Assembly (NCBI GenBank): GCA_951406725.2
Contig: OX597818.1
Coordinates: forward strand, 112,282,001 to 112,346,000
From: Octopus vulgaris
Lineage: Eukaryota
DNA: 64,000 bases
Direction of reading: 5' to 3'
Part shown: in pieces, positions 28,355 to 64,000 of the stretch
How the letters are laid out: each line of letters starts with the position of its first letter
Position numbering within the stretch: position 1 is the first letter of the stretch
Notes under the pieces: generated by a model
Told to the model about the DNA's origin: nothing
The model's input: only the letters and a program-made list of their open reading frames with translations
Databases searched by the model: none
Made by a program: the position numbers and the translations under genes

Positions 28355-28769
28355 TATTTCTTTACTGCCCATAGGGGCTAAACACAGAGAGGACAAACAA
28401 GGTCACACAAACGGATTCAGTCGATTATATCAACCCCGGTGCGTAACTGGTACTTAATTTATCGACTCCGAAAGGATGAAAGGCAAAGTCGACCTCGGCG
28501 TAATTTGAACTCAGAACGTAGCGGCAGACGAAATACCTATCTTTTTACTACCCACAAGGGGTTAAACACAGAGAGGACAAACAAGGACAGGCAAACGGAT
28601 TAAGTCGATTATATCGACCCCAGTGCGTAACTGGTACTTATTTAATGGACCCCGAAAGGATGAAAGGCAAAGTCGACCTCCGCGGAATTTGATCCCAGAA
28701 CGTAGCGGCAGACGAAATAACGCTAAGCATTTCGCCCTGCGTGCTAACGTTTCAGCCAGCTCGCCGCCT
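28355..28769 (-). mobile_element. Tandem pair of SINE family 2
   Basis: Two head-to-tail copies; the first lacks its 5' head. Confidence 0.88.
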
Positions 28770-53830: not shown

Positions 53831-55270
<1,440 letters not shown>

Positions 55271-56220
55271 AGTGCCCCAGCATGGTTACGGTTTACGAGC
55301 GAAACAAATGAAGGATAAATGATAACAAAATAAAAGAATGAATATATTTGGTATCATCTTGGGTTTCAGAAGTGTTTTGCTGTTTCTTTCGTTCATTAGT
55401 AATCTGCAGCCTTCTCCAGCTTTCAACTTGCACACGTATTTCCTTCGACGTGTAACGTAGTATTTCAATATTGATAAATATTTCGAATATTTTAACTTCT
55501 TCCACATAGAGCTTGTAACTGTAATGTGCGAATTAGCTGGTTATGCATGTGTGTATGGCTGTCAGAATTTATGTATGTATCACGCACACACATATTTGTA
55601 CAAACACATGCACACACACACACACACACGCACTCATACACATACCTATTAATAGGGATGCCGTTTATGAAGGGCAATAACGTGAGAATTTTGAATACAT
55701 TCATATATTTCCGCTGAATCAACGAATTAAAGTCATGATTTCTGGTTAGTAATAAATATTCGCTGCTTTGTCCCCCGTACAAAAGATTGTAATGGCATCG
55801 AATACAATATATCAGCCATTCAGAGATAAAGTACCAATAAACTTATATTTTAAAGGACAGGGGGTAAAGGAAATATATATATATATAAAAAATCAAATAA
55901 GCTAAATACAATAAGAGATTAGATTTGAAACTTGTGAACCTAATAAAAAAAAAATTTGAATTGTGTTTGGACATAATGAAAATGAATCTGTTACAAACAA
56001 ATTTTGCTTTATGAGGCCGCATACGAAGCTGTAAATAAACTCTAAGAAAAGTCTACTAACTTCTAACGTTTTTGACAAAATCAGCGGTACATACAAACAG
56101 ACACGCACACATGTAGACATACACATATTCACATTCTCACACACATACGGTCGCAAATAAGTAAAATCATACATGTAATCTCCTACGCGCGCACACACAC
56201 ACACACACGCACACACACAC

Positions 56221-56260
<40 letters not shown>

Positions 56261-56262
<2 letters not shown>

Positions 56263-56798
56263 GTTTAAATATTAGTTGTGCAAGATTTTTTATGTGAAGT
56301 CGTGTGTTGAAACAGATATTGTTATATTTCGGAATGGTCATATTGCCAGTTTAGCCAATAAAAACACACGCACTATACATTTGGTGTTATTTTGCTTCAG
56401 TGATATTTATTTTTTACATTAATCTTAATCTTATTTCGGCCAAAGTTCTTTCGTCACACTCCTGTGACCGCATCAGTGGTCCTTTGTTTTCTTCTCACTT
56501 ACTTGTGTCTCTCCTTACTAACCGTCAGCCATTTTGTATTTCTATTGTATGTCTTCATTTGCGCATGCTTATATCTCTATGTGCGTCTATGTTTATTTAG
56601 TGTGTGTGTGGGGGGATGCCTGTAATATTTGTATCTTCTGGTTATATACATTCTTGTAATTTGTATTTTGTTTTTGTTGTTGTTGCTTTTGTTCTAACTT
56701 TGTTCATGTGTTTACATCCACCCATTATTATCATTACATATGCTTGTATGTATGTATAACAACAATATTAGTAATAATAATAATAAATCTAATCGAAA

Positions 56799-56847
<49 letters not shown>

Positions 56848-57580
56848 TATACATACACATACATATATATATGTATATAAACATATACACACATATATAC
56901 ATATATACATATACATATATACACATATATATACACATATACACACACACATATACACACATATACACACATATACACACATACATATATATAGTTATTC
57001 ATTTCTATTTCTTTAATTATCTGTGTATTTATTATGTTTGCAGGATCCACTATCGTCATATGTTGTGGTGTGTGCTATTGCTCCATTCTAGTTTTCTATT
57101 CAGGCTAGGTTTATTTTCTATTATCTGTGTAGCTTCTGTAATTTGTCTAATTGTTGCATCTGTTCTATGTGTGGACAATATCTTAATCTCTATGTTATTG
57201 ATTAATCCCCCGTGTTCTTGTTCGGCGTGTTGGTACAGAATCGATGAGCTTTTACCTTCTTGAGTTGTCTCCAATGTTCATTCACCCGCTCTCCAATGCT
57301 TCTTGCTGTTTCCCCTACGTATGTTACTGTCTTGTTACTGCATCGTCCCTCTATACATCGTATACTATAGACCACATTTCTGGCTTTACAGTTTGTTTGT
57401 GGGCTAAATCTACATACAGTGCAATAGTTATCCGTACAGAGAGTTCTACTAAAAGGATAGGTTCTACCAATTATAGATCTGATAGGGTTGCCTGGCTTTT
57501 CAACAACCTTAATTCTTAGTTTAAGTTTATCTAGGGTCCTTCTAAAGCGGTACGCCAGTTCACCTCCAGGGGTGGTGTCA
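56261..57580 (-). mobile_element. Third copy of the 6511-8289 Penelope-like family (5'-truncated, 1-bp frameshift in GIY-YIG)
   Basis: Reverse complement of about 7032-8289; same 3' terminus at (TA)n. Confidence 0.93.
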
Positions 57581-57698
57581 TGTTCGTTGACACACACTAA
57601 ATAAACATAGAGGCACATAGAGATATAAGCATGCGCAAATGAAGACATACAATAGAAATACAAAATGGCTGACGGTTAGTAAGGAGACGGTTAGTAAG
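57577..57698 (+). other. Junction filler made of re-inverted PLE pieces
   Basis: gtcatgttcgttgacac (=7021-7037), then acactaaataaac...aaggaga (about 7946-8040), then duplicated cggttagtaag. Confidence 0.85.
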
Positions 57699-57826
57699 AA
57701 TCGGCGGCTTATATTTATTTGCTGCCGATAAATTTGGCGCGAGTGCGATGATTTGAAAATTTTAGGTCAGATATTGCCGAGGCAGGGACGGAAATGCCTC
57801 GTGAAAATATCTGTTCCGTTCTGGCT

Positions 57827-57933
57827 ATTTCTTACTGAGGAATCTAAGGGCCTATGGAAGATTGGCTTGATTTAATTTAATCAGGTTAGTTTACCATTAA
57901 ACAGTAGATGAAACGGTGCATCATATAAGAAAT
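57827..57933 (+). ncRNA. Type I hammerhead, unit 1 (G16.2A variant)
   Basis: Same as unit 2 except tcatata, which breaks the C15.2-G16.2 pair. Confidence 0.65.
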
Positions 57934-58316
57934 TACAGGGTAAATGTTTTTTTAATTTTCTCCTGGTTTACGGATTTAATGTTATTTTGCGGTTAAAGCT
58001 TTGGCTGTTATTTCTAGTGGGTGAATGGCCTATTATGGCCGTTCCTTGATTGTGATGTTGAACTTAGAAATGGTCTATGACTGTTTAATTTTTTCCCACT
58101 AGGCCGCTGGTGGCAAAAAAATTCTACAAAATTTTTTTTGCCACCCTATATTGATTAATTATGAATTTTCTGGTTGATTCCGTAATGGAATCGGCGGCTT
58201 ATATTTATTTGCTGCCGATAAATTTGGCGCGAGTGCGATGATTTGAAAATTTTAGGTCAGATATTGCCGAGGCAGGGACGGAAATGCCTCGTGAAAATAT
58301 CTGTTCCGTTCTGGCT

Positions 58317-58423
58317 ATTTCTTACTGAGGAATCTAAGGGCCTATGGAAGATTGGCTTGATTTAATTGAATCAGGTTAGTTTACCATTAAACAGTAGATG
58401 AAACGGTGCATCGTATAAGAAAT
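58317..58423 (+). ncRNA. Type I hammerhead ribozyme, unit 2
   Basis: ATTTCTTA-CTGAGGA-ATCTA[58 nt]TAGAT-GAAA-CGG tgca TCG-TA^TAAGAAAT; predicted cut after 58415. Confidence 0.85.
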
Positions 58424-58806
58424 TACAGGGTAAATGTTTTTTTAATTTTCTCCTGGTTTACGGATTTAATGTTATTTTGCGGTTAAAGCTTTGGCTGTTA
58501 TTTCTAGTGGGTGAATGGCCTATTATGGCCGTTCCTTGATTGTGATGTTGAACTTAGAAATGGTCTATGACTGTTTAATTTTTTCCCACTAGGCCGCTGG
58601 TGGCAAAAAAATTCTACAAAATTTTTTTGGCCACCCTATATTGATTAATTATGAATTTTCTGGTTGATTCCGTAATGGAATCGGCGGCTTATATTTATTT
58701 GCTGCCGATAAATTTGGCGCGAGTGCGATGATTTGAAAATTTTAGGTCAGATATTGCCGAGGCAGGGACGGAAATGCCTCGTGAAAATATCTGTTCCGTT
58801 CTGGCT

Positions 58807-58913
58807 ATTTCTTACTGAGGAATCTAAGGGCCTATGGAAGATTGGCTTGATTTAATTGAATCAGGTTAGTTTACCATTAAACAGTAGATGAAACGGTGCA
58901 TCGTATAAGAAAT
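58807..58913 (+). ncRNA. Type I hammerhead ribozyme, unit 3
   Basis: Identical core; predicted cut after 58905. Confidence 0.85.
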
Positions 58914-59297
58914 TACAGGGTAAATGTTTTTTTAATTTTCTCCTGGTTTACGGAATTAATGTTATTTTGCGGTTAAAGCTTTGGCTGTTATTTCTAGTGG
59001 GTGAATGGCCTATTATGGCCGTTCCTTGATTGTGATGTTGAACTTAGAAATGGTCTATGACTATTTAATTTTTTCCCACTAGGCCGCTGGTGGCAAAAAA
59101 ATTCTACAAAATTTTTTTTTGCCACCCTATATTGATTAATTATGAATTTTGTGGTTGATTCCGTAATGGAATCGGCGGCTTATATTTATTTGCTGCCGAT
59201 AAATTTGGCGCGAGTGCGATGATTTGAAAATTTTAGGTCAGATATTGCCGAGGCAGGGACGGAAATGCCTCGTGAAAATATCTGTTCCGTTCTGGCT

Positions 59298-59404
59298 ATT
59301 TCTTACTGAGGAATCTAAGGGCCTATGGAAGATTGGCTTGATTTAATTTAATCAGGTTAGTTTACCATTAAACAGTAGATGAAACGGTGCATCGTATAAG
59401 AAAT
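59298..59404 (+). ncRNA. Type I hammerhead ribozyme, unit 4
   Basis: Identical core; predicted cut after 59396. Confidence 0.85.
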
Positions 59405-59787
59405 TACAGGGTAAATGTTTTTTTAATTTTCTCCTGATTTACGGATTTAATGTTATTTTGCGGTTAAAGCTTTGGCTGTTATTTCTAGTGGGTGAATGGC
59501 CTATTATGGCCGTTCCTTGATTGTGATGTTGAACTTAGAAATGGTCTATGACTATTTAATTTTTTCCCACTAGGCCGCTGGTGGCAAAAAAATTCTACAA
59601 AATTTTTTTTGCCACCCTATATTGATTAATTATGAATTTTCTGGTTGATTCCGTAATGGAATCGGCGGCTTATATTTATTTGCTGCCGATAAATTTGGCG
59701 CGAGTGCGATGATTTGAAAATTTTAGGTCAGATATTGCCGAGGCAGGGACGGAAATGCCTCGTGAAAATATCTGTTCCGTTCTGGCT

Positions 59788-59894
59788 ATTTCTTACTGAG
59801 GAATCTAAGGGCCTATGGAAGATTGGCTTGATTTAATTGAATCAGGTTAGTTTACCATTAAACAGTAGATGAAACGGTGCATCGTATAAGAAAT
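59788..59894 (+). ncRNA. Type I hammerhead ribozyme, unit 5
   Basis: Identical core; predicted cut after 59886. Confidence 0.85.
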
Positions 59895-60278
59895 TACAGG
59901 GTAAATGTTTTTTTAATTTTCTCCTGGTTTACGGATTTAATGTTATTTTGCGGTTAAAGCTTTGGCTGTTATTTCTAGTGGGTGAATGGCCTATTATGGC
60001 CGTTCCTTGATTGTGATGTTGAACTTAGAAATGGTCTATGACTATTTAATTTTTTCCCACTAGGCCGCTGGTGGCAAAAAAATTCTACAAAATTTTTTTT
60101 TGCCACCCTATATTGATTAATTATGAATTTTCTGGTTGATTCCGTAATGGAATCGGCGGCTTATATTTATTTGCTGCCGATAAATTTGGCGCGAGTGCGA
60201 TGATTTGAAAATTTTAGGTCAGATATTGCCGAGGCAGGGACGGAAATGCCTCGTGAAAATATCTGTTCCGTTCTGGCT

Positions 60279-60385
60279 ATTTCTTACTGAGGAATCTAAG
60301 GGCCTATGGAAGATTGGCTTGATTTAATTTAATCAGGTTAGTTTACCATTAAACAGTAGATGAAACGGTGCATCGTATAAGAAAT
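60279..60385 (+). ncRNA. Type I hammerhead ribozyme, unit 6
   Basis: Identical core; predicted cut after 60377. Confidence 0.85.
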
Positions 60386-60769
60386 TACAGGGTAAATGTT
60401 TTTTTAATTTTCTCCTGGTTTACGGAATTAATGTTATTTTGCGGTTAAAGCTTTGGCTGTTATTTCTAGTGGGTGAATGGCCTATTATGGCCGTTCCTTG
60501 ATTGTGATGTTGAACTTAGAAATGGTATATGACTATTTAATTTTTTCCCACTAGGCCGCTGGTGGCAAAAAAATTCTACAAAATTTTTTTTTGCCACCCT
60601 ATATTGATTAATTATGAATTTTCTGGTTGATTCCGTAATGGAATCGGCGGCTTATATTTATTTGCTGCCGATAAATTTGGCGCGAGTGCGATGATTTGAA
60701 AATTTTAGGTCAGATATTGCCGAGGCAGGGACGGAAATGCCTCGTGAAAATATCTGTTCCGTTCTGGCT

Positions 60770-60876
60770 ATTTCTTACTGAGGAATCTAAGGGCCTATGG
60801 AAGATTGGCTTGATTTAATTGAATCAGGTTAGTTTACCATTAAACAGTAGATGAAACGGTGCATCGTATAAGAAAT
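60770..60876 (+). ncRNA. Type I hammerhead ribozyme, unit 7
   Basis: Identical core; predicted cut after 60868. Confidence 0.85.
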
Positions 60877-61099
60877 TACAGGGTAAATGTTTTTTTAATT
60901 TTCTCCTGGTTTACGGAATTAATGTTATTTTGCGGTTAAAGCTTTGGCTGTTATTTCTAGTGGGTGAATGGCCTATTATGGCCGTTCCTTGATTGTGATG
61001 TTGAACTTAGAAATGGTATATGACTATTTAATTTTTTCCCACTAGGCCGCTGGTGGCAAAAAAATTCTACAAAATTTTTTTTTTGCCACCCTATATTGA

Positions 61100-61161
<62 letters not shown>

Positions 61162-61373
61162 CATGTATCTGCCGTGGCCCGTTGGGTCACAACCATTCCA
61201 AGTTGAAAATGTCGGGCAAGGAAAAAATACTATTTCGAATTTCATGCAATAAAATTCTTAAATAACACTGTTCTCATGCCTATGGTGTGAAAAGTTAGGC
61301 GCGACCAAATGGCCTTAAAATTTTTTCTCGCTTTCTTCTTTCACATCGTTTGTTACTACTGTTTCCAGTGAAA

Positions 61374-61454
<81 letters not shown>

Positions 61455-61582
61455 ATTGAGGGGATAATTATAATCTAGGCTTTTCCCTCGCTGCGTCAGT
61501 AGCAGTATATATATATATATGTTGAACAGTTAGCTGATCGACTTAAGCGGGGCAGGGTCGTTGTTTATTTATAATGCATTCA

Positions 61583-61628
61583 GGCCTGCTGATGAGTACG
61601 TAAGTATGAAATCACTGTGATACAGGTC
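61583..61628 (+). ncRNA. Compact type I hammerhead ribozyme in a (TA)n-bounded element (about 61521-61897)
   Basis: GGCCTG-CTGATGA-GTAC gtaa GTAT-GAAA-TCA ctg TGA-TA-CAGGTC. Confidence 0.8.
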
Positions 61629-61894
61629 TATATTTTTTTAAATGTCTTACTTTGAAAAATTGCATTCGGTGGGATTAGTAATATTTTTGGTAGAAATGAC
61701 TAATTGTCCCTCTTAGCGTTTGGCATGTATAGATAATGCCTTCTGGCATGTATGTATAATGCCCTCTATATATAAATTAATATGTTCAATAAGAAATAAT
61801 TATTTTCGAAATTTTTTCTCTTATGAGGTTTTTACGCTATCTACCTGACAATTTCTTGTTAAGTTTTCCTTATTAAGTAGTTGTCCTTAATTGC

Positions 61895-61930
<36 letters not shown>

Positions 61931-61993
61931 AATATACATATGGTTAAATATGTATACCTTAGGAATGAGAACCCACGTTTGAAATTGCCCCCA

Positions 61994-62039
61994 GACACCT
62001 GATGATGGCTGGCGGGTATATCAGCCGAAAAGTTGTGTT
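61994..62039 (+). ncRNA. Minimal hammerhead-like motif (position 15.2 mutated)
   Basis: GACAC-CTGATGA-t-GGCTG gcgggtatat CAGCC-GAAA-aG-TT-GTGTT. Confidence 0.6.
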
Positions 62040-63331
62040 AACAACAAACAAATATCCGTCAAATGTAAATACTGTAAATAATGTATATATAACAAATAGA
62101 TCCTGCCAAATAATATATGTATATAGTAGCGAATTGTAAATTTTCCTTTCTCAAATTTTTAGGAAAACGTCACAATCACCATACGACATTACATCTAAAG
62201 CGTCAGTACTAAAGGAACCCTCATATATTATAATTTTACGTACTGTGGTTGTCTGTCAGGAATATTTGGGTCTTTCCAAGTCTGTTAAGCATGCCTCTAA
62301 ATATCCAGCACACTTTTATACATTAGATGTTTAATATACAAACAGAATTTGCACAAGGAATTCCTTACAGTGTTCAATATTTACAACTCATATTATTCTT
62401 AACAAGGTGATATATTTTACACTTCATGTGTTTCTTTGGAAATTTATATAACCACATTCATTGTATGCCCCCTATACATTTCTTTTGCAATCGTTTCATA
62501 CATAATTGCGTGATATCATAATGTTTACAGGCGAAAATTATTCTTAACAATGTATAAACAACCTTGAAATTTTAAAAATATTTCATGAATTTTTATACAA
62601 AGTTTTCTTGCTTGAGGAAAATGTGAGAAGCTTATATACAAACTGGATAATGTATTCGAAACTAGATACAATAAAGATAAACTTAATGATTGTGTTTGTA
62701 AATTAAATATGAAATATATACTGATATTTTGTTGTAAACAGGTAGATGAAACATTTCCTCGAATAATGTGTATATTAATAAAAGTCTGATATAATCATCA
62801 AAGAAAAGATGATATATGTGGCCCTCATATTAAACTACTTCATTATTGCAGCAACGAGTGTGTGTGCTGATGCAATATGTAATAAGTAAGTAATAAATTG
62901 AATGAAAAGCGGATGACGAAATTGCCTTTAATAATGTCGATAGTAATCTATTCTCCGATTTCGTGAAGCTAGATCTTGCAAACTCTATGTAATTTAATCA
63001 AATTGTCACATATATATGCGACTGTTGTTCGCAGAGACTTATTCTGACTAGGGAACTTTCTCGAATTACTTTCTCTACTTGCTGTATATTAAATGTAGTC
63101 TTAATGAAACGTGACAGACATATTAGAACCATGTCTGGTCATTTAAATCTAGAAAATTTTCCTCTTCTATTAGGGATAACATATATCTCTTCGTGGCTCC
63201 GAATAACTAATCGAATATTAAGAAATAATTGGCAGTTTCTATCAATTATCTGCTTCACATTTCTTTCTATTTTTTTTTTTTGTGGGGAATGGAAACTTAT
63301 GAAAATTTTTCGTTTTCTTAAAATTAAACAT

Positions 63332-63388
63332 AGAGTAGTACCACGGTTTTCGAACAACTCTGATCACGAATAAATCGTGCTCTCACTC

Positions 63389-63470
<82 letters not shown>

Positions 63471-63608
63471 TATATACATATATATAAAGCACGATTTATT
63501 CATGATGGGAGGCGTTCGTAAACCGAGGTACTACTGTATCAAATGAATATGAGAAAGACAGGAGATAATGTACGTTAAATTCGTGATCAGAGTTGTTCGA
63601 AAATCGAG
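63332..63608. repeat. MITE-like inverted repeats around a (TG)(TA)(GA)(GACA) microsatellite
   Basis: 63334-63381 is imperfectly inverted at 63488-63536; a further inverted piece lies at 63580-63608. Confidence 0.6.
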
Positions 63609-64000
63609 TTTCTAGCGTATTTATGTTTTCTTTGCCAAGCAATATGAAACTATTTGACGATTAAAATTAAGTTAATTTAATTGAACATTAAGTGTGTAAG
63701 ATATCAATATCCTGTACACTCATGAGAATTTTGTCCAAGTTTTCCACATCATTTTATTCAAGGTTACATCAAAATATTACCTAAATGAATATTTTTGGTG
63801 AATGAGAAAAATGTTGCTGCCTTATACAAAAATGTATAAATTTTACTCTTTCAAATGTTTTGGCGCAAGACATGTGGCCATACATGATCATCACCTAAAA
63901 AAGAAATTTACTGAATTATAAATTGTCAATGATAAATGTCAACATTATTTACATTATTTACATTTCACGGATATTTTTCCGCATCTTGTTTGTTTGTTAA

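Follow-up and report, generated by a model that had tools for sequence, protein, structure and literature searches.

We analysed a 64,000-nt stretch of the Octopus vulgaris genome (the window; contig OX597818.1 of assembly GCA_951406725.2, positions 112,282,001 to 112,346,000, forward strand), in which positions 57698–61107 form a tandem array of 490/491-bp units with type I hammerhead ribozyme motifs. We hold with considerable confidence that this array is one recent insertion of a dispersed, protein-free family of retrozymes without long terminal repeats (non-LTR retrozymes), likely copied into a (TA)n target by the reverse transcriptase (RT) and GIY-YIG nuclease of a Penelope-like element (PLE). 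The family, which is well supported at the DNA level, consists of tandem non-coding hammerhead units at many loci, with no LTR structure and no open reading frame (ORF); assignment to the retrozymes rests on this DNA-level structure, and cleavage and circles are predicted. Its insertions have the inverted, 5'-truncated arms, the tail at one end and the microsatellite target of non-autonomous elements mobilised by PLEs. An original prediction, made from the letters of the window, had proposed a young retrozyme. This is the best reading, backed by genome-wide dispersal and conservation of the hammerhead core; the main context absent from that prediction is the genome-wide family with Penelope-type ends and a joint between the array and a Penelope element.

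A tandem array of hammerhead units

Tandem Repeats Finder reports a period of 491, 6.9 copies and 99% matches for the array. Units start at 57698, 58188, 58678, 59169, 59659, 60150 and 60641; unit positions are counted from 58188 as position 1. The seventh unit ends at unit position 465, fixed end B of the family, and (TA)n follows directly. The unit has a GC content of 37%, and the longest ATG ORF within the array encodes 26 aa. The array and its hammerheads are:

57698–61107, plus strand: retrozyme array, 6.95 units of 490/491 bp (Tandem Repeats Finder, descriptor scan)
57827–57933, plus strand: unit 1 type I hammerhead, probably impaired; predicted cut after 57925
58317–58423, plus strand: unit 2 type I hammerhead, intact; predicted cut after 58415 (descriptor scan)
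58807–58913, plus strand: unit 3 hammerhead; predicted cut after 58905 (descriptor scan)
59298–59404, plus strand: unit 4 hammerhead; predicted cut after 59396 (descriptor scan)
59788–59894, plus strand: unit 5 hammerhead; predicted cut after 59886 (descriptor scan)
60279–60385, plus strand: unit 6 hammerhead; predicted cut after 60377 (descriptor scan)
60770–60876, plus strand: unit 7 hammerhead; predicted cut after 60868 (descriptor scan)

These data agree with the seven near-identical units of about 490 bp, and with the absence of any ORF of 60 aa or more, that the original prediction had described. It had placed the unit at the large end of the retrozyme size range; 490 nt exceeds the 170–400 nt of Cervera and de la Pena (2020, PMC7229834) but falls within the consensus lengths of 51–972 bp given by Li, Clavereau and Pollet (2026, bioRxiv 10.64898/2026.07.22.740005); throughout, these two papers and Craig et al. 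(2021, PMC8557442) are cited for the sections consulted.

A descriptor scan of both strands of the whole window recovered six hammerheads in the array (units 2–7) and one at 61589. The six array matches reproduce the cut sites proposed previously, and every listed element is present in units 2–7: the 8-bp stem I, CUGAGGA, the 5-bp stem II base, GAAA, CGG-UGCA-UCG and the GUA site. All six have the type I layout, with a CUGANGA / GAAA / NUH core, three helices and an open helix I. Stem I is predicted to comprise 8 bp, a 3 × 2 internal loop and five further pairs, and stem II 5 bp, a 7 × 7 internal loop and a long hairpin (a 58-nt extension). Stem III (CGG-UGCA-UCG) is near-palindromic; its strand has a predicted energy of −0.2 kcal/mol alone vs −17.5 kcal/mol when paired with a second copy. 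An arrangement in which palindromic stems III dimerise has been described for animal hammerheads (PMC4209133).

The claim of a complete hammerhead in every unit holds for units 2–7 but fails for unit 1, which the descriptor missed because a G>A change at 57923 breaks C15.2–G16.2, the Watson-Crick pair with which stem III begins beside the core. This change had been taken for a mere GUA-to-AUA variant of the cleavage site. It also weakens the predicted stem III dimer from −17.5 to −12.3 kcal/mol, and the unit 1 ribozyme is probably impaired.

The motif is rare in shuffled sequence: among 20,000 dinucleotide-shuffled units, searched on both strands, none yielded it with stems of 8, 5 and 3 bp, and a looser descriptor matched 19 times. 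Rfam gave no hammerhead match within 55000–64000 at E≤1, probably due to the 58-nt extension of stem II defeating its models. Folded as a circle, the monomer is predicted to be more structured than its shuffles (z −4.8, 40 shuffles).

Constraint on the hammerhead core

When the core was left free in the query, CUGANGA was kept in 1,639 of 1,648 genomic copies, as the original prediction had expected of homologues. A non-catalytic 6-nt control segment was kept in 3,978 of 4,097 copies. The core thus changes about five times less than the control (0.55% vs 2.9%; Fisher p about 1e-9, a value that is overstated because the copies are related).

Column variation was measured across 80 loci, which yielded 274 copies of the unit. 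All four bases are common at N7, the sole such column of the unit, and H17 is either A or C and in no copy G. At the stem II pair 58336–58395, 219 copies have A-U and 44 have G-C. Loop III reads UGCA in 231 copies and UAUA in 35, with the palindrome preserved. Such variation fits what would be expected of a working hammerhead.

A dispersed family with two fixed ends

A core-intact pattern matches 2,079 times in the 2.8-Gb genome (reversed control, 0), a 28-nt segment of the unit matches 4,097 times, and the unit itself gives 236 matches among the best 40 of 1,337 candidate places. The 80 loci studied comprise 39 of top identity, 40 from the first pattern-listed loci on contig C1, and the window; they contain 81 insertions. 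Two head-to-head arms are present in 57 insertions, one ending at about unit position 359 (end A) and the other at about 465 (end B); in five of these the second arm is very short. A single arm with an open 5' end is found in 17 insertions, and one atypical end in six. No insertion has two A ends. One apparent insertion with two B ends (locus L094) proved to be an artefact of a short-motif search. The two fixed ends lie 106 nt apart, and 127 of 131 ends at 359 or 465 adjoin (TA)n.

Arm lengths were analysed in 47 two-armed insertions that passed a filter, after six complex loci had been removed by hand. Arms exceed one unit in 63 of 94 cases. Their 5' ends are scattered over the unit, with 1 of 94 falling within 10 nt of the cut site. 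Arms that cross the cut site and extend beyond a single unit were not copied from a cut linear monomer; their template was circular or else an uncut multimer. The lengths of arms A and B are uncorrelated (rho −0.10). In six insertions the two arms share, in fixed form, variants (eleven in total) that occur at none of the other sampled loci, as would be expected if one source gave both arms.

Several observations concern the spread of the family. Three loci (L022:3717-4062, L032:5253-5719 and L110) each combine units of two subfamilies (identity about 90–96% v 98%), a mixture that points either to a switch of template from one retrozyme RNA to another or to more than one insertion at a site. 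Contigs of a second organism (run X11) aligned to 57200–59200 cover the repeat and the Penelope piece, and in one of them the repeat ends in (TA)n at 58061; the family is therefore not confined to one species label. In the same interval, each of four contig runs, which are RNA only by guess, shows depth in 24–26 of 30 bins, on the Penelope piece as well as on the array, and no pile-up of ends; this pattern is neutral as to whether the array is transcribed, cleaved or circularised.

A Neptune-like Penelope element joined to the array

The array is the right-hand part of a composite that spans 56262–61107. Its remaining parts and flanks are:

56221–56261, no strand: (TA)n target, left flank of the composite
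56262–57580, minus strand: 5'-truncated arm of a young, putative Neptune-like Penelope, down to the fixed long end at 56262
57576–57594, plus strand: inversion joint, a short sense piece of the Penelope ORF at a GTGTC/GACAC inverted repeat (from sequence)
57590–57687, plus strand: inverted 98-bp piece of the Penelope 3' untranslated region (UTR), 99% complementary to 56510–56607
57671–57698, plus strand: joint between Penelope and retrozyme, with two copies of a 13-nt motif 15 nt apart
61105–61156, no strand: (TA)n target, right flank of the composite

The Penelope arm carries a frameshifted remnant of a GIY-YIG endonuclease at 57059–57580 (E=2.6e-4, just below the gathering score) and a 3' UTR that reaches 56262. 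The family has at least 1,788 candidate places (top copies, 99%), and one copy, at locus L074, has a single ORF, an open frame of 1,271 aa. The closest database protein is 99% identical and labelled Octopus vulgaris; RVT_1 is weak in it, and Pfam gave no match on the two full Penelope frames. An RT, a CX2-5CxxC linker and, at the C terminus, a GIY-YIG domain with two internal cysteines, features of the Neptune/Nematis type, are present, and motifs and ORF layout point to a Neptune-like PLE.

We examined the footprint of this PLE in 40 fetched loci, half of them picked for holding the long end. Its fixed ends lie on (TA)n and 54 nt apart (window equivalents 56316 and 56262), and one of each is found in 24 of 27 loci with two opposite-strand ends. 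The two-end rule of the retrozyme is the same as that of the co-resident Neptune-like Penelope.

The Penelope 3' UTR also contains, at 56439–56483 on the minus strand, a motif that resembles a minimal hammerhead with C in place of A9 (CUGAUGC...GAAA). It is identical in 57 of 64 copies among the matches listed and could be either a variant core or a motif that is dead.

From left to right the composite reads (TA)n, Penelope minus arm, inverted snippet, 3' UTR in sense orientation, 13-nt repeats, array, (TA)n. The last base of the 13-nt motif is the first base of the array, and the retrozyme replaces the last ~195 bp expected of the second Penelope arm. The joint has one match in the genome, that is, no second copy, and none of the other 79 loci has a joint with this Penelope family. 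A candidate second chimera, L036, was rejected: the 163 bp joined to the retrozyme there form the end of a common repeat, for which the other matches listed show no inverted second arm.

Tentatively, and at somewhat less than even probability, we propose that the 4.8-kb composite arose in a single event of reverse transcription, with a change of template from retrozyme RNA to the enzyme's own mRNA. A Neptune-type enzyme would have primed at the retrozyme fixed end, made several rounds of the 490-nt RNA circle, moved over to its own mRNA and linked up with a second cDNA that had been primed there. Both parts are ~99% identical to their closest relatives, which speaks for one event, and the slip at the joint, seen in the repeated 13-nt motif, fits re-priming. 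The composite could instead have formed by a later insertion, in which priming of a retrozyme in (TA)n next to an existing Penelope copy was followed, as the 5' end of the retrozyme was joined, by loss of part of that copy. Single-arm insertions with 5' joints into unrelated DNA (L036, L037, L094, L122 and L130) are precedents for this course; L036 itself is more plausibly the joining of a 5' end to DNA already in place. At L107 a retrozyme is found ~370 bp beyond the point where another RT-bearing frame stops. If true, the single event would name this Penelope family as the mobiliser of a retrozyme with which it shares no sequence.

Proposed mobilisation by Penelope and competing explanations

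In the explanation that we favour, retrozyme arrays would be transcribed as multimers, and the hammerheads would cut after GUA, probably aided by pairing of two palindromic stems III. A host ligase would close the 490-nt monomer. The Penelope enzyme would nick (TA)n, prime at unit positions 359 and 465 and, from either side of the break, copy its way round the circle; the resulting pair of cDNAs would be joined head to head. Some of the array length was likely altered later by local exchange between units.

Several results weigh against parts of this scheme. In all 11 of 11 variant types the hammerhead fold lies 1.5–3.3 kcal/mol above the predicted minimum-energy fold, and the hammerhead is absent from the predicted fold of the whole monomer, with stem I pair probabilities of 0.02–0.13. 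These energies neither prove nor exclude cleavage, because the predictions omit tertiary contacts; for a putative working hammerhead, variation across the family is more telling. That variation has its own limits. At subfamily level variation is found in 0 of 11 core columns vs 50 of the other 441, a difference that does not reach significance by itself, and the compensatory changes amount to just two or three events in related lineages, not hundreds. The 80 loci were chosen by top identity, by the intact-core pattern or for being the window. Shared variants at positions 181, 278, 378 and 386 are distributed in mosaic fashion over the seven units of the window, a pattern that would not come from one pass round a uniform circle. 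L037, L045 and L102 contain repeated blocks of units in which variants recur at a period of ~3 or 2 units, which fits either a multimeric circle as template or duplication of blocks once the array had been inserted. Given the mosaic units and repeated blocks, array length is not the number of turns round a circle but owes something to later exchange or to noise in the assembly consensus. Finally, BLASTN found no similarity between the 490-bp unit and the Neptune-like family (40 loci of this one PLE family compared), so descent of the unit from a Penelope pseudo-LTR (pLTR) is unsupported.

The long arms are accounted for equally well by uncut multimeric transcripts, and the closest competitor keeps the family and the Penelope machinery with such a template: the hammerhead would be slow or serve as a recognition structure, and no circle would form. 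Arms that traverse the cut site and a hammerhead that is not the lowest-energy fold agree with it, as do the poor cleavage by minimal hammerheads of PLEs and the failure of eight of nine predicted Xenopus retrozymes to cleave in vitro, one having cleaved (bioRxiv 10.64898/2026.07.22.740005). Selective retention of the core, with N7 and H17 varying inside the alphabets of a cutting hammerhead, argues the other way, and retrozymes of mussel, coral and axolotl do cut and circularise (PMC7229834); we consider an uncut template unlikely. Still less probable is that the unit is the tandem pLTR of an unsampled autonomous Penelope and the arrays are its 5'-truncated copies, with no separate parasite. 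The insertion ends are PLE-like, and 24 of 57 Xenopus retrozyme families are homologous to the termini of repeats, almost all of which are PLEs (bioRxiv 10.64898/2026.07.22.740005). Yet the arms in the 80 loci are pure tandem units, up to ~14 copies, that never enter an ORF, and a Neptune-like protein matches only in the window and at L047, there ~900 bp from the insertion. We give scarcely any credence to an ordinary satellite that spread at the DNA level with the hammerhead as a relic: the mosaic and block-duplicated variants of long arrays indicate some local DNA-level exchange, but such a satellite is at odds with 3' ends that are fixed and lie on (TA)n, with 5' ends at random positions, with head-to-head arms and with conservation specific to the core.

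Other features of the window

The hammerhead at 61589 belongs to a second repeat family. The interval 61519–61905 (plus strand; hammerhead 61582–61629) is a truncated, (TA)n-flanked copy of a 480/481-bp hammerhead repeat with a CUGAUGA core, a 4-bp stem II and an AUA site. Candidate places for this family number 977, and contig C1 carries a long array of it; five other loci that were retrieved (three separate insertions) have inverted arms whose ends lie 121 nt apart. The two hammerhead families of the window share no significant sequence (best E 0.098).

A short frame at 55130–55318 on the plus strand (VINLS...NFNPTP) presumably resembles the N-terminal region of another Penelope-like ORF. 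At 28361–28719 are two copies of a 184-bp unit with 89% identity, part of which resembles the flanks of other loci; it is probably a common dispersed repeat.

Comparison with known systems

The retrozyme class is already known from mussel, coral, axolotl and Xenopus. No report of cephalopod retrozymes was found in the literature searched, and the supplements of PMC7229834 and of the 2026 preprint might list examples. Taken alone, the ribozyme and circular RNA part of the octopus system would merely add another host group. The enzyme that copies animal retrozymes into DNA has so far been argued from coexistence and pLTR homology; here the retrozyme insertion ends match those of a young Penelope family of the same genome, and one locus joins both. 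With this, a test in vitro can draw on a named enzyme, one template and two priming sites, and the result bears on the origin of inverted, tailed PLE insertions, called unresolved in PMC8557442. The insertion rule is what specialists would value; the Penelope fusion is locus-specific and ambiguous.

Cervera and de la Pena (2020) define the metazoan non-LTR retrozymes, with units of 350–390 bp in mussel, 220–240 bp in coral and 330/350 nt in axolotl, and report cleavage and circles in all three. In the sections consulted, they name PLEs as strong candidates for mobilisation from coexistence and do not use insertion ends. The octopus family resembles these retrozymes in its tandem, non-coding, low-GC units with one type I hammerhead each, its thousands of copies, its coexistence with PLEs and a short palindromic helix III suited to a dimer. 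It differs in the 490-nt unit and the 58-nt hairpin on stem II, and its expression and circles are predicted.

Li, Clavereau and Pollet (2026) treat vertebrate non-LTR retrozymes as PLE derivatives, linking the two by pLTR homology and co-occurrence, and favour local tandem amplification; the consulted sections of their preprint include no mollusc. By their definition, a complete hammerhead in at least two consecutive tandem units, the octopus array is a retrozyme, with a size in their range and a PLE link. Unlike the vertebrate retrozymes, the octopus arrays are dispersed, have PLE-type ends and lack detectable homology to the neighbouring PLE.

For PLEs with an endonuclease (EN+), Craig et al. 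(2021, PMC8557442) describe arms in inverted orientation, (TA)n targets and a tail confined to one of the ends. With Neptune-type EN+ PLEs the octopus family shares 5' truncation, head-to-head arms, the single-end tail and (TA)n, and with non-autonomous Chlamys elements such as MRC1 it shares multicopy head-to-tail forms. The end offset is 106 nt in the octopus retrozyme, 54 nt in the co-resident PLE and 30–40 bp in PMC8557442. In contrast to EN+ PLEs, the octopus unit has no ORF and carries a canonical rather than a minimal hammerhead. PLE hammerheads are like those of the octopus in their type I topology, their palindromic helix III and the circle proposed as template for more-than-unit reverse transcription, whereas they are mostly minimal motifs of low activity that reside inside autonomous elements.

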